This document shows positions 40,010-59,474 of a stretch of DNA of 64,000 bases, piece after piece. Each line of letters begins with the position of its first letter. The stretch's first letter is position 1. Made by a program: the position numbers and the translations under genes. Where the stretch lies: assembly GCA_041320515.1 (NCBI GenBank), contig JBGLNR010000001.1, positions 1,510,201-1,574,200 on the forward strand, in the 5' to 3' direction. Under the pieces are notes generated by a model. It was given only the letters and a program-made list of their open reading frames with translations, ran no database searches and was not told where the DNA came from. Source of the DNA: Planctomycetota bacterium. GTDB taxonomy: Bacteria > Planctomycetota > PUPC01 > DSUN01.

Positions 40010-40978
40010 TCACTTCTCCTTGGTGATCTTGTAGGCCTGGCCCTCGACGACGAGGATCATCGGCTCGTTCTTGGCCAGGTAGATGCCGATGGTCGGGTGC
40101 TTCTTGAGGAGGGCGAAGCACTCGTCGCTGAGGGACTTGACCTCGATGAGCTTGGCCTTGTGCGTCGCCTCGTCGTAGAGGCTGTCGTGGAGGAAGCCGT
40201 CGGCCTTGCGGTAGAAGGTCTTGTCGCCGATGGTCACGATGGTCGCGGCGGCGGCGCGGTCGAGGTCCAGGCTCTTCGCCTCGTCGTCCCCGAAGCCCAC
40301 GCGGTGGCCGCCGCCTCCTGGTCCGGCGGGGGCTGGGGCTGCGCTGCTGCCCTGCTTGTGGAGTTCCTGGGCGCGCTCGACGGCGCCGCGGCCGTCGCGG
40401 GGCGCGTTGGCGAAGGTTGCCCCTGCCTCGCGCAGGCGCTCGGCAAGCTGGGGCCGGGCGCCGTCCTCGACCACGAGGAACGAGGTGTAGGGGGTGACGA
40501 TGCCGTACTGCTTGCCGAGCTTCACGATCTCGTCCTCAAGCTCCTTGTTCTTGCCGCGGAGGCGGATTTCGTCGAGGAGGTAGGCCACCTTGCGGACGGC
40601 CCACAGGCGGGGCAGGAAGCCGTTGTCGGCGGTCTCGGCAAAGGTGGTCTCGTAGACGAACTCCTGGGGCTTGCCGCCCACGGTGCCCGAGAGCTTGATG
40701 GCCTTGGCCCCGCCGCCCTGGAAGCGGCCGAGGAGCATAAGCTGGCTGCCCCTGAAGAGATCGGGCAGCGTCTTCGGATACACGTCGAGGGTCTTCAGGC
40801 CGGGGATGTCGAGCTTCAGGTCGGACAGCACGGGGTTGGCCACCTTCTGGTAGAAGGTGGAGACCTTGACCTCGATGTTCTCCTTGGGCGTCACGTAGTC
40901 GGACGTGGCGCGGTTGTCGCCCGCCAGGCGGTCGAGGAGTTCGGTACTGCCGATTGTGCTCGCCCAGACACGCGACAC
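40010..40978 (-). pseudogene. C-terminal portion of a VIT/vWA-family (inter-alpha-trypsin-inhibitor-like) protein, 5'-truncated
   Basis: The ORF starts (GTG) at ..TIGSTELLDRLAGDNRATSDYVTPKENIEVKVSTFYQKVANPVLSDLKLD.. In homologues this follows the vWA domain. No VIT or vWA domain is present, and a stop lies 2 codons upstream. Confidence 0.6.
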
Positions 40979-41052
40979 AACTCACGGTATATCAACAACT
41001 TACGAATTGACTCACTCCAAACCAGCCCGAATCTGACAATCCCCACAACACA

Positions 41053-41093
41053 CAACAGGTTGTGGCTGCCGCCGAGCACGCCACAACTTGTTG
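41053..41093. repeat. 13-bp inverted repeat with a 15-nt spacer at the left edge of the defence island
   Basis: CAACAGGTTGTGG ... CCACAACTTGTTG; 12 of 13 positions are complementary. Confidence 0.7.
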
Positions 41094-41297
41094 ACTCGGC
41101 AGAGTCGGCAGACTCGGCAGGTTCTCGGGGGGGGGCTCGCCGGCCCCACGTGGCCGCACCACGGAGACACGGAGGCCACGGAGGGTCCCGTGCGGAGAAA
41201 GCCCCCCGCAATCGGTTCTCACACAGAGGCGCAGAGGCCGCAGAGAAGACCTGCCCCCGAAAGGACGCGAAACGCGAGACGCGAAACCCATACTTGA

Positions 41298-41328
41298 CCA
41301 CGGATGGCACGGATGGGCACTGATGGGA
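41298..41328. repeat. Tandem CACGGATGG(G)-type repeat, left island edge
   Basis: accacggatggcacggatgggcactgatggg. An inverted, near-identical copy lies at 48021-48060. Confidence 0.7.
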
Positions 41329-41379
41329 GAAGAGGGGGCCAACCACAGAGACACTGAGAACATGAAGCAGGCCGCAGCA

Positions 41380-43800
41380 TCAGCCGCGCACCAGGGTATC
41401 AATCGCCTGCCAGTCGGGGCCTTTGGGCATGACGAAAAGGCACCGCCCACGGCTCCGGTCCGACCACAGCTCGCCCACGTCGCGCTTCTCCTTCGAGTCG
41501 TCGTTGCTCCACCGATCCACGCTCTTGTACTCTACGACAGCAGTCCGACCGTTCTTGAGCCACGCTATGAAATCGGGGTGGAACTTGTCGGTGGAGGTCT
41601 GGAGCGAGAAGGACTTGTCGCCCCTATCCAGGTTCCTCAACCACACGTCCACTTCCGGCATCTGATCGATGTGCGCGGCGCATTCGGCCTCCTCGCCATT
41701 CATGTCGCCCACCACGCCGAACAGGTGCTTGCGGAAGCGCTGGGGCACTTCATAGAAGCGGTTCGGCGCATAGCTGGCCTCGTCCATTGTCAGGCATACC
41801 TCAGGGCTGACCTCGAACGCCCCGCGGTTCGGCCTCAGCAGCATCCTCTGGTAGCCGCGGGCCTTGTGCTCGCGCATCACGCCGTCAATCCTGAGCCACA
41901 GGGCATCGGCTAGCCGGAACTTGTCTCTCGCCAGTTGATCGAGCGCCAGGCCGCGCGACTCCATCAGATGCTTGACGGCATTGTGGATGAAGAGAGCCGA
42001 TTGGCTCTGCGGGATTGCGTTGCGCCGTTCCTGGTCAAGCAGTGTGCGCCGGTCGAGCCAGTTGGCGAAGCTCGGCAGGGTCCACCCCTCCTCGTGGCCG
42101 AAGAAGGCGATCTGCGCGTGGAGGTCGGTGACAAAGTTCCCCACCCTCACCTTCCCCGCCTCGTCCACGTCCACCTGGGCCTCTTGCGCCGCGGCAACCA
42201 TGGACGGGAACTCAGCTTCGGTCAGAGCCGCGTCGCACGCCGCCAGGTTCCAATCGTCCGGCAGCAGGTGGCTGCTGTCGAAGACCTCCAGTTGCCTGCC
42301 CCTGCGGATGCACAGTAAGGGGATTGAGAAGGGTAGGGCCGTTCCGCGCCGCGCCGGCGCCTCGGGCACACCACCCGGGCCGAACAACGGCCCGAAGTCC
42401 TGCTGCTCCGCCGGCTCCACAAAATCGCTTGCCTCCATGCGCTGGAAACCGGCGCCCTCGATCAAGGCATCCCGCAGCGACGCCGCGGTCTGAAGGAAGT
42501 TCTCCGAAGCAGCAAAGGCATACGCGCAGTTCAGCCCCTCGCGCCTCTTCCGCCTGGCATGTGGCAGCCGCAGAATGCGGCCCAGCACCTGCTCCACGGC
42601 CGTGGCTGTACTCACCTGCGTCAGAGAGCACAGGACGTAAGCGAAGGAGCAATCCCATCCCTCCGTCAGCGCCTTCACCGTGATGATGTAGCGAAACTTG
42701 CACTTCGGGTCGAACAGGTCAACGTTCTCGATCCCACGGGTCTCGCCTGTCGCTATCGCTATCTCTTCCTGGGGGACCTTGTGGTCGTCTATCAGCGCGC
42801 GGCGCAGCACGCCCACATTCACGTCGTCGCCGTGGATCGACTCGGCCTGGAACAAGACGATGGGCCGGATGTGCTCGCCGGTTTCACTCTCCTCGGCCTC
42901 TGCGAGTTCCCGTAGCTCGCGCTCCTTGTCCAAGGCGTCTCGCACGATAGTCTGCCAGTCGCCCCGCGTCCGCAGCTTGATCGGCAGCTTGATCATGTTG
43001 TCGGCCTTCAACTCGCGGGCCGACACGTGGTGCAGGACGTTGCTGGCGTACCTCTTCTGCGCTGGGTCATGCGTGGTCTCAGGCGTCGCAGTGAACTCAA
43101 CGATGCAGGACGGCAGCAGGCGCGTCAGGGTCTCAAAGGTCAGCTCTGTCCTCGCCTTGTGCGCCTCGTCCATGACCACGACCGGCCGCCGCATGCGCAA
43201 CACGTTCGCCAGCGAGTGCAGCGGCCGGCCCGCGCTCTCTGTCTCCAGGAGCGCCAGCACGCTCCCCTGCACCGCGTCGAAGTGGTGCTGCAAGTGGCCA
43301 TCGGACTCGTAGACCTTGCGCCCCTCCGTGTCCTGCACCCGCAGCGATTGGAGCGTCGTCACGATGATCGTCGTGTTCCCATCCAGGGCCGCTCGCGACA
43401 CGTAGAGCGCGTCGGCCAGGTCGAGCACGGCGACGCGCCCGGGGAAATCGGCCTCCAGGGCCTGCCGATACGGATGCCGCGGCTCCCTCAGCGCCCGTAT
43501 CGTCTGCTCGCGGATGGCGTTCGACGGCACGAGCCACAGGCACACGGCGCGGTCGGCCCGCAGGTATTCCCGCGTCACGATGCCCAGGGCGTGGCAGGCC
43601 ATGAAGGTCTTGCCCCCGCCCGTAGGCACGCGCAGGCAGACGTAGGGCATGCCCTCCAGCCGCGGCGCGCTCACACGCTTGTAGGCCCGCTCGGTGATCT
43701 CGTAGAACGCCACGCTCGGGTTGCCGCTCTGCACCACCAGGCGCAGGTACTTCGCCAGGGTGTCCAGGCTGTCCCGCTGGTATCCGCGCAACTCCAACAT
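41380..43800 (-). CDS. res: Type III restriction enzyme Res subunit (SF2 helicase plus C-terminal PD-(D/E)xK nuclease)
   Basis: Start at MLELRGYQ. Walker A-like VPTGGGKT and DEAH-like VVMDEAHK are present. The C-terminus HPDFIAWL...VVEYK is nuclease-like. The track ORF's upstream extension into the repeat is rejected. Confidence 0.85.
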   Translation of the reverse strand: MLELRGYQRDSLDTLAKYLRLVVQSGNPSVAFYEITERAYKRVSAPRLEGMPYVCLRVPTGGGKTFMACHALGIVTREYLRADRAVCLWLVPSNAIREQTIRALREPRHPYRQALEADFPGRVAVLDLADALYVSRAALDGNTTIIVTTLQSLRVQDTEGRKVYESDGHLQHHFDAVQGSVLALLETESAGRPLHSLANVLRMRRPVVVMDEAHKARTELTFETLTRLLPSCIVEFTATPETTHDPAQKRYASNVLHHVSARELKADNMIKLPIKLRTRGDWQTIVRDALDKERELRELAEAEESETGEHIRPIVLFQAESIHGDDVNVGVLRRALIDDHKVPQEEIAIATGETRGIENVDLFDPKCKFRYIITVKALTEGWDCSFAYVLCSLTQVSTATAVEQVLGRILRLPHARRKRREGLNCAYAFAASENFLQTAASLRDALIEGAGFQRMEASDFVEPAEQQDFGPLFGPGGVPEAPARRGTALPFSIPLLCIRRGRQLEVFDSSHLLPDDWNLAACDAALTEAEFPSMVAAAQEAQVDVDEAGKVRVGNFVTDLHAQIAFFGHEEGWTLPSFANWLDRRTLLDQERRNAIPQSQSALFIHNAVKHLMESRGLALDQLARDKFRLADALWLRIDGVMREHKARGYQRMLLRPNRGAFEVSPEVCLTMDEASYAPNRFYEVPQRFRKHLFGVVGDMNGEEAECAAHIDQMPEVDVWLRNLDRGDKSFSLQTSTDKFHPDFIAWLKNGRTAVVEYKSVDRWSNDDSKEKRDVGELWSDRSRGRCLFVMPKGPDWQAIDTLVRG

Positions 43801-43840
43801 CCGCGCCCTTCCTCTTCGCGTCCGTAGTGCGGCCCTCAGG

Positions 43841-44010
43841 CCAGGCGGCGGAGGGAACCTATAAGGAATGCAGGAAGGCAGGAAAGGAGGAGAGAACGCC
43901 ACGGACGGTCCCGGCAACCCAACCCCCGCTCTGCTTCCTGGGTTCCTGCATTCCTTAGAGGCATCTCCTCTGGCCTCGATGGTTCCGCGTGCAAGTCTGC
44001 ACGCCCTACC
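43841..44010. repeat. About 170-bp structured repeat, copy A, between res and hepT-1
   Basis: It aligns along its full length with 44788-44959. It contains long hairpin arms CTATAAGGAATGCAGGAA / TTCCTGCATTCCTTAGAG and the terminal hairpin CGTGCAAGTCTGCACG. Confidence 0.85.
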
Positions 44011-44380
44011 GCTGCTCTTCCTTTTGGAACGGCAGCCTGTCCGGGAACTCCTTGGCCAGCACTTCCGCCACGAGGCCACGGAGCTTGGGCGTATCCTGAG
44101 TGGCCGCGGCCCACACGAACTCCCACTTGACGCCGAAGTAGACGTGGACTGCCCGATTGCGAAAAGTGATGACGTCGTCCCATTGGACTTGCGGGTGCCG
44201 CTTGCGGAGTGCCTTGGACACCCGCGCGGCTGCCTCGCCGATGATGATCAGCTTGTAGAGAACGGCGTCGTGCCTGACCTCATCTTTCAGGAAGGCACCC
44301 TGATCCACGCCGGCCAAGTACCGCGCGATCGTGTCCGCGGTCTCGACGATGTCGCACAGGTACAGTTCCTCACGCCGCAT
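44006..44380 (-). CDS. hepT: HepT (DUF86, HEPN) toxin, copy 1
   Basis: The Rx4HxY motif is in FRNRAVHVYF. It overlaps the upstream MNT gene by 11 nt. Confidence 0.9.
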   Translation of the reverse strand: MRREELYLCDIVETADTIARYLAGVDQGAFLKDEVRHDAVLYKLIIIGEAAARVSKALRKRHPQVQWDDVITFRNRAVHVYFGVKWEFVWAAATQDTPKLRGLVAEVLAKEFPDRLPFQKEEQR

Positions 44381-44672
44381 AGAGCACCTTAGCGCTGGCC
44401 AACACCGCGTCGCGGATCAGGGGCTTGAGGCAATCCCTGGGAACCAGGTCCACGCGCCGATGGAAGAGCTGGCTCAACTCTCGCTCGCACTGCGCCCAGG
44501 CGAGGAAGCCCATGTGGGCGTCGTCGGCAAACAGCACCAGAAGATCAATGTCGCTCTTCGGCCCGAAGTCATCCCGCACGGCGGACCCGAAGATCTCGAG
44601 CCGCGTGATCTTCCAGCGGCGGCAGAAGTCGGCCAGCGTCTCCATCGGCACCTCGATGACGAATGGGGCCAT
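44370..44672 (-). CDS. mntA: MntA minimal nucleotidyltransferase antitoxin, copy 1
   Basis: FGSAVRDDFGPKSDIDLLV carries the GSx10DxD motif. AAGGAG RBS precedes ATG 44672. Confidence 0.9.
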   Translation of the reverse strand: MAPFVIEVPMETLADFCRRWKITRLEIFGSAVRDDFGPKSDIDLLVLFADDAHMGFLAWAQCERELSQLFHRRVDLVPRDCLKPLIRDAVLASAKVLYAA

Positions 44673-44787
44673 GCCGGTTTCTCCTTCCGCCCTCATTATG
44701 CGCGAACCGCGCCTGGGGCGCAAGCCGCCCTCAGGGGCCTGTCATTCCGGGCGGAGCGCAGCGAAGTCGAGGAATCTCTCTGGCTCC

Positions 44788-44959
44788 CCAGGCGGCAGAG
44801 GGGACCTATAAGGAATGCAGGAAGGCAGGAAAGGAAGAGGAAACGCGACTCGGGGGTTCGGCAACCCAACCCCCGCTCTTTTTCCTGGGTTCCTGCATTC
44901 CTTAGAGGCATCTCTTTTGGCCCCGATGGCTCCGCGTGCAGGTTTGCACGCCCTACCAC
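44788..44959. repeat. About 170-bp structured repeat, copy B, immediately 3' of the DUF2283 gene
   Basis: See copy A. The terminal motif ccgcgtgcaRgtYtgcacgccctacc recurs a third time at 46150-46178. Confidence 0.85.
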
Positions 44960-45157
44960 TCAGCTCGCGACCTGAAAGTCCACCCGCCGCGCCTCGGGCA
45001 CGCGCCGCGAGGCGTCGAGGATTTCGATGCCCACGAGATTCCCCTCGGCATCGTAGTCCAGGATCACTCCCGGCTTCCCCTCGTCGCTCTCTGCCACGGG
45101 GCCGGGCTTCAGCTCCATGGTCAGCGTGTCGGTGTGGGGATCATACACTATCCTCAT
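44960..45157 (-). CDS. DUF2283-family small protein
   Basis: MRIVYDPHTDTLTMELKPGPVAESDEGKPGVILDYDAEGNLVGIEILDAS is the classic DUF2283 pattern. Confidence 0.85.
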   Translation of the reverse strand: MRIVYDPHTDTLTMELKPGPVAESDEGKPGVILDYDAEGNLVGIEILDASRRVPEARRVDFQVAS

Positions 45158-45190
45158 AGTCCGCTCTTGTGATGTCCTCTCATCTGCGCC

Positions 45191-45565
45191 TTACGGCGGG
45201 TCTCCCGTTGCGAACGGCAATCGCCCGGGGAACTCCTTGGCCAGGATGTCGCCCACGAGGCGGCGGACCTCTGGCGCATCCTTGCTTGCCGCAGTCCATA
45301 CGTTTTCCCATTTGACCGCGAAGTAGACGTGGACGGCTAGGTTGCGGAAGATGATCAGGTCCTCCCACTCGACCAGCGGGTACCGCTTACGGAAGGCCTT
45401 GGGGAGGCGAGCGGCAGCTTCGCCGATGATGATCAGCTTCATGAGCACCGCGTCGCGTTTGTCCCTGTCGGCCAGGAACGCCGCGCGGTCCACACCACGA
45501 AGCGATACTTCGATCGCGTCGGCCGCCTCGACCATGTCGGCCAGGTAGAGTTCCTCACGCCGCAT
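45191..45565 (-). CDS. hepT: HepT (DUF86, HEPN) toxin, copy 2
   Basis: FRNLAVHVYF carries Rx4HxY. By eye, about 45 of 124 positions differ from copy 1. Confidence 0.9.
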   Translation of the reverse strand: MRREELYLADMVEAADAIEVSLRGVDRAAFLADRDKRDAVLMKLIIIGEAAARLPKAFRKRYPLVEWEDLIIFRNLAVHVYFAVKWENVWTAASKDAPEVRRLVGDILAKEFPGRLPFATGDPP

Positions 45566-45857
45566 ACAACACCTTCGCGCTGGCCAGCACCGCGTCGCGG
45601 ATCAGCGGCTTGAGACCGTCCCTGGGCACCAGGTCAACTCGCCTGCCGAAGAGCTGACCCAACTCGCGCTGGCACCGCGCCCAGGCCAGGAAGCCCATTT
45701 CCACGTCAGGCTCAAACAGCACGAGGAGGTCAATGTCGCTCTTCGGCCCGAAGTCATCCCGCAACGCGGAGCCGAAGACCTCGAGCCGCGTGATCTTCCA
45801 CCGGCGGCAGAAGTCCGCCAGCGTTTCCATCGGGACATTCATGGCATATGGGGCCAT
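45555..45857 (-). CDS. mntA: MntA minimal nucleotidyltransferase antitoxin, copy 2
   Basis: FGSALRDDFGPKSDIDLLV is present and a GGAGGA RBS precedes the start. By eye, about 15 of 100 positions differ from copy 1. Confidence 0.9.
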   Translation of the reverse strand: MAPYAMNVPMETLADFCRRWKITRLEVFGSALRDDFGPKSDIDLLVLFEPDVEMGFLAWARCQRELGQLFGRRVDLVPRDGLKPLIRDAVLASAKVLYAA

Positions 45858-45899
45858 CGCCCGTCCTCCTTCTGCCTCCATTATCTGCCAACCACGCGG

Positions 45900-46317
45900 G
45901 ACGCGCAAGTGGAGCAGGCATCCTGCCTGCCGATTGCAGGCGGGACGCCTGCACCACTTCACTCTCGTCGCGAAGCTCCTGCTTCGCCACGGTCATACGG
46001 AAGCTCCTGCTTCCGCTCTTTCGCGGCGGGAGCCGCGCGGTTCACGCTAGAAGACACAGCCGAGGGCGGCTGCGCCACACAATCGCCACGATCGTGCGGC
46101 TCTCGTAGGGTGTGCACACCTGCACACGCAACTCCCGCCCCCGTCCTTTCCGCGTGCAAGTTTGCACGCCCTACCACGATGGCAGCCGTAGGGACGGGCG
46201 GCCCGCCTGTCCCATCTTCGACTACGGCAGGCGTGGGGACAGGCGGCCCGCCTGTCCCATCTTGGACACGCGAGCCGCGTGTCGCTACGACCAGAAACGG
46301 AGTGCACGCAGCGCCCA
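45900..46317. repeat. Cluster of REP-like hairpins between mntA-2 and mod
   Basis: Hairpins present: GCAGGCA-TCC-TGCCTGC, GCAGGCG-GGA-CGCCTGC, GTGTGCACACCTGCACAC and CGTGCAAGTTTGCACG. There are also two tandem copies of GGGAC(G/A)GGCGGCCCGCCTGTCCCATCTT. Confidence 0.8.
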
Positions 46318-47940
46318 TCATGTGACCTTGATCTCATAGGGAACCTGCCGGAACACAATCCCCTCGCGGGCCAACCGCTCGGCCGACAGCCGGCACGCCT
46401 CGCCATACACGATCTTCGGCCCGTCGTGCGCCGGCAGCTTCGCCAGCATGGCGCCCGTGAGCACGTTCCCACCCTTCGACCGCCTGTCCCCCATCACGCC
46501 GTTGAACAGGAGATACACGGCCTTGCCCTCGTGAACCCCCAGGAGCGGCGACTTCCCCGTCGCCCGCTTCGGGATCGGCGCCCCCGTCTCCGTGAAGAAC
46601 ACATGCGCCGCCAGGTCCGCAAAGCTCACCAGCGCCGCAATGTTCCCCCCTTCGTCGAACAGCGGAGTCCCAAGACGGCAGTACCGAAACCCGCCGCCAA
46701 TACCCGCCATATCTATGTTCTGCTCCCCCCAGGTGGACTTCTGTCCGGTGATCACCCGCGCCAATCGCTGGGCGGCCACGCCTCTGCAGACTTCCTGCTG
46801 CATCTCGACGAGGATGAACCGCCTTTTCCCGCCGTCCGCACGGTTCTTCAGAAGCACCGCGTGACCTGTGGTCGCGCTGCCCGCAAAAGAGTCGAGGACA
46901 AGGGAATCGCTCTCTGTTGCAATGTGCAGAATGCGCTCGATCAACCTGGTGGGCTTGGGGGTTATGAAGAGATCGCTGGATGCCCCTCCGTCCATGATCT
47001 TGCTGAGTTCCTGCTTGGCATGGCGGGTGCTCCCGACCACTTTCCATGGCCAGAGGGTTTGGGGCACAACTCCATGCCTGACCTCGGACAAGAATCTCTT
47101 GATGCCAGGTCTGTTGCTTCCGGTCTTCCCCCACCAGATTCGGTTGTCACGATCAAGCTCCTGGAATTTCTCTTTGCTGACGCGCCAATAGCTCCCGGCC
47201 GGGGGCCCCTGAATGACCTTTCCGGATGGCGTTTGGATCGGGTACCGGCCCTGTGAATACAGATTGCGCGCAGCTAGATCGCTGAGAAGCCATGGGCCAC
47301 GCGGGTCTTTGTCAGGATTCTTGTACCGGGCCACCATATCGTCCGTCCGTGGTACCCTGTTGGGCCGCCAGACCTCTGCATTGCGTGCGTATAGCACGAT
47401 ATAGTCGTGGTCCTCGCTGAGATGGATGGCCGTGTTCTTCGGGCTGTCCATCTTCTGCCACACAATCGTTGCGATGAAGTTGCGCGGCCCAAATACTTCG
47501 TCCATCAGCAGGCGGAGGTTGTGAACTTCGTGATCATCAATGCTGACGAAGATGGCTCCTTCTTCGCGCAGGAACTCTCGGAGGAGTGCGAGGCGGGGGT
47601 ACATCATGCAGAGCCACTTGTCGTGGCGGGTGAGGTCCTCGGCCTCCTTGCCGACGGTCTGGTGGAGCCAGTTGCGGATTTCGGGGCTGTTGACGTTGTC
47701 GTTGTAGACCCAGCCCTCGTTGCCGGTGTTGTAGGGCGGGTCAATGTAGATGCACTTGACCTGGCCGGCGTAGTAGGGGAGGAGGGCTTTGAGGGCCTCG
47801 AGGTTGTCGCCCTCGACGAGGAGGTTGCCCGCGTCGGGGTCGCCGGCGGAGAGCTCGGGGTCGCAGGTGAGCAGGCGGTAGGGCACCTGGTGGTGATGGT
47901 TGACGACGGCCTGCTTGCCGATCCAGTTGAGCGTGGGCAT
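46318..47940 (-). CDS. mod: Type III-like (beta-class) DNA methyltransferase Mod subunit
   Basis: Start at MPTLNWIGK (ATG 47940). DPPY (motif IV) precedes FAGSATTGHA (motif I). Everything upstream in track ORF 46318..48702 is antisense to the aldo-keto reductase fragment. Confidence 0.85.
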   Translation of the reverse strand: MPTLNWIGKQAVVNHHHQVPYRLLTCDPELSAGDPDAGNLLVEGDNLEALKALLPYYAGQVKCIYIDPPYNTGNEGWVYNDNVNSPEIRNWLHQTVGKEAEDLTRHDKWLCMMYPRLALLREFLREEGAIFVSIDDHEVHNLRLLMDEVFGPRNFIATIVWQKMDSPKNTAIHLSEDHDYIVLYARNAEVWRPNRVPRTDDMVARYKNPDKDPRGPWLLSDLAARNLYSQGRYPIQTPSGKVIQGPPAGSYWRVSKEKFQELDRDNRIWWGKTGSNRPGIKRFLSEVRHGVVPQTLWPWKVVGSTRHAKQELSKIMDGGASSDLFITPKPTRLIERILHIATESDSLVLDSFAGSATTGHAVLLKNRADGGKRRFILVEMQQEVCRGVAAQRLARVITGQKSTWGEQNIDMAGIGGGFRYCRLGTPLFDEGGNIAALVSFADLAAHVFFTETGAPIPKRATGKSPLLGVHEGKAVYLLFNGVMGDRRSKGGNVLTGAMLAKLPAHDGPKIVYGEACRLSAERLAREGIVFRQVPYEIKVT

Positions 47941-47978
47941 GGCCTGCGGGCCCTCCGAAGGGGCTGGGACGCGGAAGC

Positions 47979-48007
47979 AGTATAGCGCCGGCCCGTCGGC
48001 CCTGCAA
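47979..48007 (-). promoter_or_regulatory. Sigma70-like promoter for mod: TTGCAG, 17-nt spacer, TATACT
   Basis: On the minus strand: TTGCAG at 48007-48002, a 17-nt spacer, TATACT at 47984-47979. It lies about 40 nt upstream of the mod ATG. Confidence 0.45.
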
Positions 48008-48020
48008 GGCCATCTCTTCC

Positions 48021-48060
48021 CCCGTGGAATCCGTGCCCATCCGTGGCATCCGTGGTGTGG
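48021..48060. repeat. Inverted copy of the CACGGATGG-type repeat, right island edge
   Basis: The reverse complement ..accacggatgccacggatgggcacggat.. matches 41298-41325 at 26 of 28 positions (by eye). Confidence 0.7.
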
Positions 48061-48876
48061 TTTATCGAGCAGAGCACGGAACTCGTCCGCACGGCCCTCG
48101 CCCTCGGCATCAACTACATTGACACCGCGCGCCTCTACGGCCGCTCCGAGGAAATCCTCGGCATCGCCCTCGAAGGCGTCACGCAGCCCTACTACCTGGC
48201 GACCAAGGCCGGCTGCGTGCCACGCGACTTCGACTATTCGGCCGACGCCGTGCTCCGCAGCTTCGAGACCAGCCTGCGCCTCCTGCGGCGAACCCGCGTG
48301 GACCTGCTCCAGATACACGACGCGGAGTCGGCCGGCTGGGACCGCGTGATGGGCAAGGGCGGCGCGCTGGAAGCCCTTCGTCGCCTGAAGAGCGAGGGCG
48401 CTGTCGCCGCCATCGGCGTCACGGGGCGCAACCCCGAGGTCCAGGCCCGATTCGTCGCCACCGATGAGTTCGACAGCGTCCTCTCCTACTGCGACTACGA
48501 CGTGACGACGCGGCTCGCCCGCGAGACGCTGCTGCCCGTGGCGGCGGAGCACCGCGTCGCAGTCGTCCTCGGCTCGCCGTTGCGGGTGGGCACGCTCGCC
48601 CTGCCGCGGGGCGCCGCCCTCTCCGCCTGGGCCGCGCCGATACGCCCCAAGCTCGAACGCCTTCACGACCTGGCCGAGCGCGAGGGCACGCCCCTCCCCC
48701 ACCTGGCGATTCGCTACCTCCTCAGCGACCCCGATTTCGCCACGGTCCTCACCGGCGCCGGCTCGGTGGACGAATTGCGCGACGCCCTCGCCGCCGCATC
48801 CGCCGGGTCGCTGCCGGGCGCCGTGCTCGCTGAAGTTCGGGACATTCAGGGGAGACCGTCCGGTTCGGCGAGTTGA
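48043..48876 (+). pseudogene. Aldo/keto reductase, 5'-truncated (about 35-40 N-terminal residues missing)
   Basis: It begins inside the family's first conserved block (..LALGINYIDTARLYGRSEEILG). The usual N-terminal beta-hairpin and LGxTG region is absent, and the first codons lie within the repeat. Confidence 0.65.
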
Positions 48877-48947
48877 CTTTCCCCCGGTGCGCGGGCATAA
48901 TGCAGCGCGGCAGGCGATCCGCTGTGGTGGCGATCGGGAGAAGAGCC

Positions 48948-49181
48948 ATGGTCTGCGGCATTTGCGGACAGGAGGGCGCGCGGCTCCGCCGCATGGCCCG
49001 CACCTATGGCAAGGGCGACGATCTCCTTGTCATAGAGAACGTCCCCGTCGTCTCATGCCCTCATTGCGGCGAGAGCTATCTGACCGCCGACACGGCCCGG
49101 GAGCTGGACCGCATCCGACGCCACCGGCGCGAAGTCGCCGTCAGCCGTCCCGTACCCGTGGCGGAGTACGCCACGAAGTAG
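48948..49181 (+). CDS. YgiT-type zinc-finger protein (MqsA N-terminal-like)
   Basis: CGICG...VVSCPHCGESYLTADTARELDRI matches the YgiT finger pattern. Confidence 0.8.
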   Translation: MVCGICGQEGARLRRMARTYGKGDDLLVIENVPVVSCPHCGESYLTADTARELDRIRRHRREVAVSRPVPVAEYATK

Positions 49182-58846: not shown

Positions 58847-58847
58847 C

Positions 58848-59474
58848 AAGGTCTACCCCCTCGTCCTCTTCCTCCACGGCGCGGGCGGACGCGGCGCCGA
58901 CAATTGGGGGCAGATCAAGGACCAGCCCGCGGCCCTCCTCGCCCTGGCGGGCGACGCCGTGCAGGTCAAGCATCCGTGCATCGTCGTTGCCCCCCAGTGC
59001 CCCGGCGGCAAGCAGTGGGTGAACACGCCCTGGGGCAAAGGCTCCTACTCGCAGGACAAGGTGGCCATCTCCGCCGAGCTGAAGCGCGTGCTCGAGGCCC
59101 TGGCCCAGCTCCGCACGGAGTTCCAGGTGGCCCCCAACCGCATCTATGTGACAGGCATCTCGATGGGCGGCTACGGCACGTGGGACATCATTCTGCGGGA
59201 GCCGAAGCTGTTCGCGGCGGCCATGCCCGTGTGCGGCGCGGGCGACCCATCGCGTGCGGCGAGCGTGGCGAAGATGGCCATCTGGGCGTTCCACGGGGAC
59301 AAGGATGGCGTGGTGCCCGTGGCCGGCTCGCGCGAGATGATCGAGGCCCTCAAGAAGGCCGGCGGCGCCCCCAAGTACACCGAGTTCCCCGGCGTCGGCC
59401 ACGCCTCCTGGACCCCCGCCCACGCCACCGAGGGCCTGTGGGAGTGGCTCTTCGCCCAGAAGCGGGGGGAGTAG
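58848..59474 (+). pseudogene. Alpha/beta-hydrolase esterase (phospholipase/carboxylesterase-like), 5'-truncated with no start codon
   Basis: It is in a different frame from rhaA. It begins at KVYPLVLFLHGAGGRGADN. The nucleophile elbow is GISMGG, and HGDKDGVVP and GVGH are also present. The N-terminal signal region is absent. Confidence 0.75.

Follow-up and report, generated by a model that had tools for sequence, protein, structure and literature searches.

Two HepT/MntA modules between mod and res of a planctomycete type III restriction-modification locus whose sharp borders are probably contig joins

The locus described here lies at positions 40,979 to 48,060 of a window of 64,000 nt (the whole stretch of DNA that was analysed), which corresponds to positions 1,510,201 to 1,574,200 of contig JBGLNR010000001.1 in the Planctomycetota bacterium assembly GCA_041320515.1. 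It holds a restriction-modification (R-M) system of type III in which the methyltransferase gene mod and the restriction gene res are separated by toxin-antitoxin (TA) genes. Genes were called from a listing of open reading frames (ORFs) together with Pfam and PADLOC scans, and coordinates are those of the window unless a genome position is given. Seven genes are found on the minus strand, in the order mod, mntA2-hepT2, a DUF2283 gene, mntA1-hepT1 and res, and the gene coordinates place mod and res about 2.5 kb apart, both as described in a first-pass annotation of this DNA.

The mod gene (46318-47940, minus strand like the other six) encodes a type III methyltransferase of 540 aa that matches PF01555 (E=2e-37) and the PADLOC model MTase_III PDLC03644 over positions 1-541 of 542 (E=2e-210), with motif IV DPPY (IYIDPPYNTG) read upstream of motif I FAGSGTT (DSFAGSGTTG). 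At the other end of the block, res (41380-43800) encodes a type III restriction subunit of 806 aa (PF04851, E=3e-14; PADLOC REase_III, E=8e-128) with the superfamily 2 (SF2) helicase motifs PTGGGKT and DEAH (MDEAH) and a C-terminal nuclease motif PD..EYK (PDF..VVEYK), conserved with the G011 homologue compared below, and its ATG is preceded by the Shine-Dalgarno (SD)-like sequence GAGGAAGG. Between them lie mntA2 (45555-45857, 100 aa from an ATG at 45857, beginning MAPYAMNV; PF01909, E=4e-16), hepT2 (45191-45565, 124 aa; PF01934, E=1e-20), the DUF2283 gene (44960-45157, 65 aa; PF10049, E=3e-19), which is the sole copy in the genome and has no adjoining partner toxin gene, mntA1 (44370-44672, 100 aa, beginning MAPFVIEV; PF01909, E=3e-14; PADLOC PDC-S09) and hepT1 (44006-44380, 124 aa; PF01934, E=3e-22), a member of the HEPN RNase toxin family. 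The mntA starts are our own reading from the conserved ATG, the mechanical ORFs reaching 45962 in mntA2 and giving 117 aa from a TTG at 44723 in mntA1. In both pairs mntA is directly 5' of hepT with an overlap of 11 nt. Moreover, the HEPN motif Rx4HxY is intact in HepT1 (RNRAVHVY) and HepT2 (RNLAVHVY), its tyrosine being presumably the residue that is AMPylated, and the minimal nucleotidyltransferase motif GSx10DxD is intact in both MntA proteins (GSAVRDDFGPKSDID and GSALRDDFGPKSDID). All seven genes are complete, with the catalytic motifs of Mod, Res, both HepT and both MntA preserved.

The closest relative of mod and res within the class is, for the two genes alike, one abutting pair in the genome G011 (G011:C69). 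There, the mod product is 59% identical over its full length, the mod stop abuts the start of res, and the res product is 54% identical, also over the full length. A more distant pair, with a spacing of 264 nt, is present in the genome G001. In the genome analysed here res is the only copy detected, and mod comes first and res second on the same strand. Since both genes best match one abutting pair and the genome has a single res, an origin of mod and res in different, unrelated systems, which had been named beforehand as a finding to overturn the first-pass reading, is not what was found; the comparison shows that mod and res are one cognate type III system. Also, a second type III-like mod homologue, 40-44% identical, is located some 48 kb ahead of the window, at genome 1462074-1463240, with no second res detected in the genome. 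A search for contigs encoding mod turned up no record with the exact protein.

The two TA pairs of the insert are each other's closest relatives, a third HepT/MntA pair in the genome being only 36-40% identical to them; with three pairs in total, no large genome-wide expansion of HepT/MntA was found. Their divergence is unequal, MntA1 and MntA2 being 85% identical and HepT1 and HepT2 67% identical in protein; at the DNA level, over 44006-45857, the values are 85% for mntA versus 72% for hepT. The pairs are accompanied by structured repeats, read like the genes on the minus strand. Directly 3' of the hepT1 stop, the intergenic repeat at 43801-44005 has a hairpin resembling repetitive extragenic palindromic (REP) elements, GGTAGGGCGTGCA..TGCACGC, followed by a long hairpin of about 110 nt (predicted fold of -103.8 kcal/mol, z=-3.4). 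The same two hairpins occur directly 3' of the DUF2283 stop in a second intergenic copy (44673-44959; z=-4.5), the first copy being 87% identical to 44788-44960, so that an element of about 170 nt is present twice. In the spacer between mod and mntA2 (45858-46317), the REP-like hairpin appears once more (46149-46177), together with a 45-nt tandem palindromic repeat (46171-46260); the block thus contains this 29-nt hairpin in triplicate, and the genome has over 30 copies of it. The spacing is 1185 nt for the TA pairs and 947 nt for the hairpin elements, which fits a duplicated unit of mntA, hepT and hairpin in which one copy acquired the DUF2283 gene or the other lost it. The two pairs probably arose by local duplication of such a unit.

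To place this arrangement among its homologues, 80 loci with mod homologues of 47-71% identity, from about 600 reported matches, were surveyed, and res was located in 47 of the 50 genomes searched. Less than 60 nt separates mod and res at 27 of these 47 loci, in agreement with the canonical adjacency assumed by the first-pass annotation; the gap is 60-350 nt at 6 loci and 0.5-1.1 kb at 13, and at the remaining one, in Labrys okinawensis, mod itself is disrupted by integrase-like and transposase-like ORFs. In this last locus (L063, strain DSM 18385, complete genome, 11500-14050), mod is split by a tyrosine-recombinase-like and a transposase-like ORF, which are followed by the last 86 mod codons and an intact res; the IS91-like label that could be given to it is our own reading of these ORFs.

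The insert genes were typed by scanning ORFs from these 13 wider gaps with Pfam. ORF6N proteins are encoded at three loci (L046, L061 and L062), and a zeta-toxin-like kinase, accompanied by a small partner ORF, at two betaproteobacterial loci (L044 and L072). Single loci carry PDDEXK_3 (L027), Unstab_antitox with ParE (L030), BRO-N (L048), RhuM (L068) and DUF2281 with HicB-like and HicA genes (L053), whereas the inserts of three loci (L041, L047 and L077) gave no Pfam match. Intervening HEPN-MNT genes, for which such a survey had been proposed, appear at none of the 47 loci; the window copy is the largest mod-res insert in the survey and the only one seen with HepT/MntA. Judged from these loci, the mod-res junction of the family is a permissive site at which small cassettes with toxin, TA or accessory genes have landed repeatedly.

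The borders of the block require a separate reading, based on the assembly as a whole. The source record is one contig of 5.97 Mb with an estimated completeness of 68%, whereas same-genus genomes have 8-9 Mb. In a self-comparison of the 5.97 Mb, no match reached 300 nt; exact repeats extend to 106 nt at most and pile up at 93-101 nt. Given the absence of long repeats and this pile-up, the record is read as short-read contigs and not as a finished chromosome. The presence of a full-length 16S rRNA gene is uninformative as a sign of a bin. A gene-breaking junction of the same type is found elsewhere in the window, where a 5'-cut esterase begins at 58847: positions 58847-58946 are an exact 100-nt overlap with genome 1152243-1152342, at which the upstream part of the gene ends, and this overlap indicates that the esterase start is another join of overlapping contig ends. 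Taken together, the repeat profile and the junctions point to a single contig that is a pseudo-chromosome, made of short-read contigs strung end to end.

At the left border, the VIT/vWA gene (minus strand) is present as a 3' part only (40010-40945, codons about 422-733). Its ORF as called (40010-40978, 322 aa) is matched by relatives from residue 11 onward, so the claim that this gene is cut at the border holds. The orthologues are 91-92% identical and have 732-870 aa, those in same-genus genomes lying in frames of 799-871 aa; relatives do not carry the truncated-looking form as their full length, which was the other finding named beforehand. With the G001 orthologue as probe, residues 1-457 were located at genome 3402534-3403874, on the opposite strand and 1.85 Mb away. 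The end of this 5' half and the window share 75 nt exactly (window 40871-40945, genome 3403800-3403874), and joining the halves through this overlap gives an intact ORF of 733 aa, the G001 orthologue having 732 aa. Moreover, the 5' half is preceded by a spermidine-synthase-like gene, as in G001, and not by the supposed island. An insertion that deleted a divergent promoter region, as the first-pass annotation proposed, is contradicted by these data, as the "deleted" half is still in the genome. The block carrying the 5' half opens with a radical-SAM gene cut at residue 257. At its other end, the vWA 5' half passes in frame at genome 3403874|3403875 into the middle of an unrelated, large N6-methylase resembling type IIG or bacteriophage exclusion (BREX) enzymes; this vWA-methylase fusion is a false open frame of 1576 aa and another contig join.

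The left join is placed at 40945..40946, where the exact vWA overlap stops and a 98-nt repeat, here called R (40946-41043), starts. R is present in 17 near-identical genomic copies and supplies the false GTG start and the first 11 or so codons (MSRVWASTIGS) of the vWA ORF as called. The copies have a common right-hand end base, and none of them reaches left of about 40943. Their right flanks belong to a few families of REP-like modules, and those of several copies are related and in register (a GGTTGTGG..CCACAAC hairpin and (GACTCGGCA)3), and for this reason R is taken to be contiguous with the R-M side; a join at its right edge (41043|41044) is ruled out by these flanks and by the vWA overlap ending at 40945. 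R probably represents the end stub of a target-specific, multi-copy mobile element that the assembler failed to cross and that is either collapsed in the assembly or missing from it. Its reading as a mobile promoter or leader that gives a shared N-terminus MSRVWASTIG was rejected, the frame being open for 11-436 codons that are unrelated among the 17 copies. Further copies of R are found, for example, at genome 1638062, 3276373 and 4436610. Between R and res, 41044-41379 is a mosaic of dispersed short repeats comprising the same GGTTGTGG..CCACAAC hairpin and (GACTCGGCA)3, followed by (CCACGGAGG)3, (CAGAGGCCG)3, (ACGCGAA)3 and (CACGGATGG)3.

At the right border, the R-M contig would end with a (CCGTGGCAT)n module at 48022-48056, an inverted copy of 41297-41324, whose nine or so other genomic copies all stop matching at 48056. 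The aldo-keto reductase (AKR) gene of the plus strand (48057-48876) appears to be the start of another contig and is without its first 30 or so codons: PF00248 matches from profile position 19, again in line with a cut flanking gene, and the GTG at 48043 that opens the AKR ORF is inside the repeat of the neighbouring contig. A G003 orthologue, 74% identical, aligns from its residue 67, at window 48064, and has a different neighbour gene. In addition, an orphan AKR N-terminus (LRHRTFGRLGWQVSEVG) was located at about genome 3764425-3764478, after which the sequence changes abruptly. The module ends at 48056 and AKR homology starts at 48058-48064, so the join at 48056..48057 would be exact to a few bases, and the right border is a probable contig join. 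Downstream, a 102-aa Zn-ribbon ORF (48873-49181, plus strand) overlaps the AKR stop and has a sub-threshold match to the MqsA antitoxin that is weak (E=6e-4; 20 bits, where the cut-off is 30).

The inverted repeat of 28 nt that brackets the R-M contig (41297-41324 and 48029-48056, 93% complementary) is made of (CACGGATGG)3 and belongs to the mosaic of triplicated 7-10-mers; two copies in 7 kb exceed the prediction from its genomic density. As the module is dispersed, with about 10 genomic copies, it is not a terminal repeat specific to an island. We assign a probability of about 0.8 to a combined reading, in which the "island" (40946-48056, about 7.1 kb) is a single short-read contig, the truncated vWA and AKR genes mark glue joints, and the contig holds a complete type III system with an insert acquired at its mod-res junction. 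Both findings named beforehand as able to overturn an island, full-length relatives with the same truncated-looking genes and unrelated mod and res, turned out otherwise, and an assembly artefact is the third possibility, which applies. A comparison with relatives was also proposed in order to define the empty site; none is definable, since the flanks are not neighbours in the organism.

Within this contig, the interior is judged real because 41044-48056 shares no exact repeat of at least 34 nt with the rest of the genome, contains no truncated gene, and has a mod and res that are cognate and correctly ordered and oriented. The split operon, with the TA block between mod and res, therefore looks real as judged from the sequence, and the claim that the TA genes lie truly between the two R-M genes is sustained in a stretch without sign of an internal join.

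For such an operon, the following sequence of events could be proposed. The type III mod-res junction, where the genes normally abut or overlap, would have acquired an insert of 2.5 kb with two MntA-HepT (type VII) modules, a lone DUF2283 gene and hairpins similar to REP elements or miniature inverted-repeat transposable elements (MITEs). In the HepT/MntA systems of Shewanella and Aphanizomenon, RNA cleavage by HepT is kept in check by MntA AMPylation. By analogy, HepT would cleave RNA here when MntA-mediated AMPylation lapses, and the cassettes would act as independent, self-contained addiction or abortive-infection modules that may incidentally stabilise the R-M locus. As mod is still 5' of res, the order of methylation before restriction would be kept, whereas the translational coupling of most relatives would be lost and res would use its own SD-like site.

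The layered or addictive defence unit put forward by the first-pass annotation is a plausible idea, by analogy with known operons. Anantharaman et al. 2013 (PMC3710099) describe R-M operons that carry HEPN nucleases, RhuM and Fic/Doc within them, MNT-associated HEPN genes that cluster with such operons, and toxin or abortive-infection genes in the same embedded setting, among them PrrC in EcoprrI, RloC, Abi2/AbiD and ApeA. The general phenomenon of toxins in R-M operons is already described, and the HepT/MntA tandem in a type III gap is an added instance; our literature search found nothing specific on type III operons with embedded TA genes. A stricter version, in which HepT would be a PrrC-like back-up freed when a phage disables the type III enzyme, so that the whole is one layered defence unit, seems unlikely. 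It gains from the embedded HEPN nucleases just cited, from the match of MntA to the PADLOC candidate defence family PDC-S09 and from the in-operon position, which is that of other toxin genes in 13 of 47 relatives. Nonetheless, the insert genes of those relatives are mutually unrelated, as would be expected of a permissive site more than of a specific partnership, HepT/MntA form TA pairs that are complete in themselves, and none of the 47 loci repeats them at this site. Slightly more doubtful still is a dedicated docking site at the mod-res junction of this widespread type III family, where toxins would guard the restriction enzyme and fire when a phage blocks Mod or Res. Its putative recruits would be ParE, HicA, the zeta-like kinase, RhuM, ORF6N and the two diverging HepT/MntA pairs, as a type III counterpart of PrrC-EcoprrI. 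If this were true, the range of what is sensed or cleaved would be widened by the tandem HepT pair with its asymmetric divergence.

It is improbable that the interior is an artefact as well, with mod, the TA block and res coming from separate molecules or strains and mis-joined at common hairpin repeats. The poor assembly and the recurrence of the REP-like hairpin, within the block and across the genome, would allow for it. However, the common repeats are 29 nt long or 87% identical, which is judged too short or too diverged, as exact repeats up to 106 nt were kept apart elsewhere. Genes inside the block are not truncated, and chance gluing would hardly set a cognate mod and res in order 2.5 kb apart, when the vWA halves landed 1.85 Mb apart. 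Moreover, inserts at the same mod-res position are common in relatives from independent assemblies, complete genomes included.

Several points weigh against the reading of a real split operon on a contig with two glued ends. The right border is without an overlap-type proof, and even with the orphan AKR N-terminus some 13 codons of the gene are missing. The contiguity of mod, TA block and res and the exact position of the right join follow from sequence logic only. Also, no surveyed relative has either HepT/MntA or an insert of 2.5 kb in the mod-res gap. The overlaps at the joins differ in length (75 and 100 nt) and point to no particular assembler or k. Finally, a scan of the region for promoters and terminators gave no promoter-like site, and the sole terminator-like site is on the plus strand (48041-48055), with none on the coding (minus) strand.

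A real genomic island of about 7 kb between divergent vWA and AKR genes, whose arrival would have removed the two 5' ends along with their common promoter region, is extremely improbable, for although both neighbours are cut exactly at the borders and inverted copies of the 28-nt repeat bracket the block, the vWA 5' half exists elsewhere with its exact overlap and native upstream neighbour, an orphan AKR N-terminus is likewise found away from the locus, the same type of break recurs across the genome, and the bracketing repeat is a dispersed module. This reading is refuted at the left border and very unlikely at the right one, and no integrase or transposase was found in 40946-48056 in the ORF list or by Pfam.

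Two consequences can be drawn from the contig with glued ends and a real split operon. On the one hand, the record behaves as a glued bin, where a "truncated gene", a "chimera" or a "sharp island border" needs a check for contig joins before any biological reading. On the other hand, about 28% of the homologous type III loci (13/47) hold a small cassette, toxin or accessory, in the mod-res gap, and the survey extends to type III the pattern best known from type I operons. These natural mod-X-res constructs would be a ready list for testing cooperation between an embedded toxin and restriction, and the HepT/MntA tandem, in which the antitoxin is conserved while the toxin drifts, would be a small natural experiment in TA insulation.

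A comparison with the type III enzymes EcoP15I and EcoPI shows the same basic plan, a beta-class N6/N4 methyltransferase Mod encoded upstream of a Res with SF2 helicase motifs and a C-terminal PD-(D/E)xK nuclease, with matches of both to the PADLOC type III models and abutting genes in the closest relatives. At the biochemical level, this class is marked by ATP-dependent cleavage that requires two sites in inverse orientation and by hemimethylation through Mod. In contrast, here 2.5 kb of unrelated genes and hairpins separate mod and res, and the stop/start overlap of most relatives is lost. In the case of MntA-HepT type VII systems (Shewanella SO_3165/SO_3166 and Aphanizomenon), the likeness covers the order of mntA then hepT with overlapping stop and start, the motifs Rx4HxY in HepT and GSx10DxD in MntA, and the sizes of about 100 and 124 aa; the difference is a tandem of two putatively active pairs, of unequal divergence (85% and 67%), inside an R-M operon. 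Among the embedded toxins of R-M operons, the best-known examples (PrrC in EcoprrI is one) come from type I operons, for the most part as lone nucleases without an antitoxin. With these the locus shares a HEPN-family RNase gene inside the operon, and homologous loci hold RhuM and other toxins at that position, whereas in this case the operon is type III and the insert has two complete MntA-HepT pairs and DUF2283. Finally, this record has in common with concatenated bins or pseudo-chromosomes that junctions break genes, that complementary halves of a gene lie far apart and overlap exactly at their ends, that long repeats are missing and that the estimated completeness is low for a "single contig", but the joins here have no N spacer or linker, so they look like real sequence.

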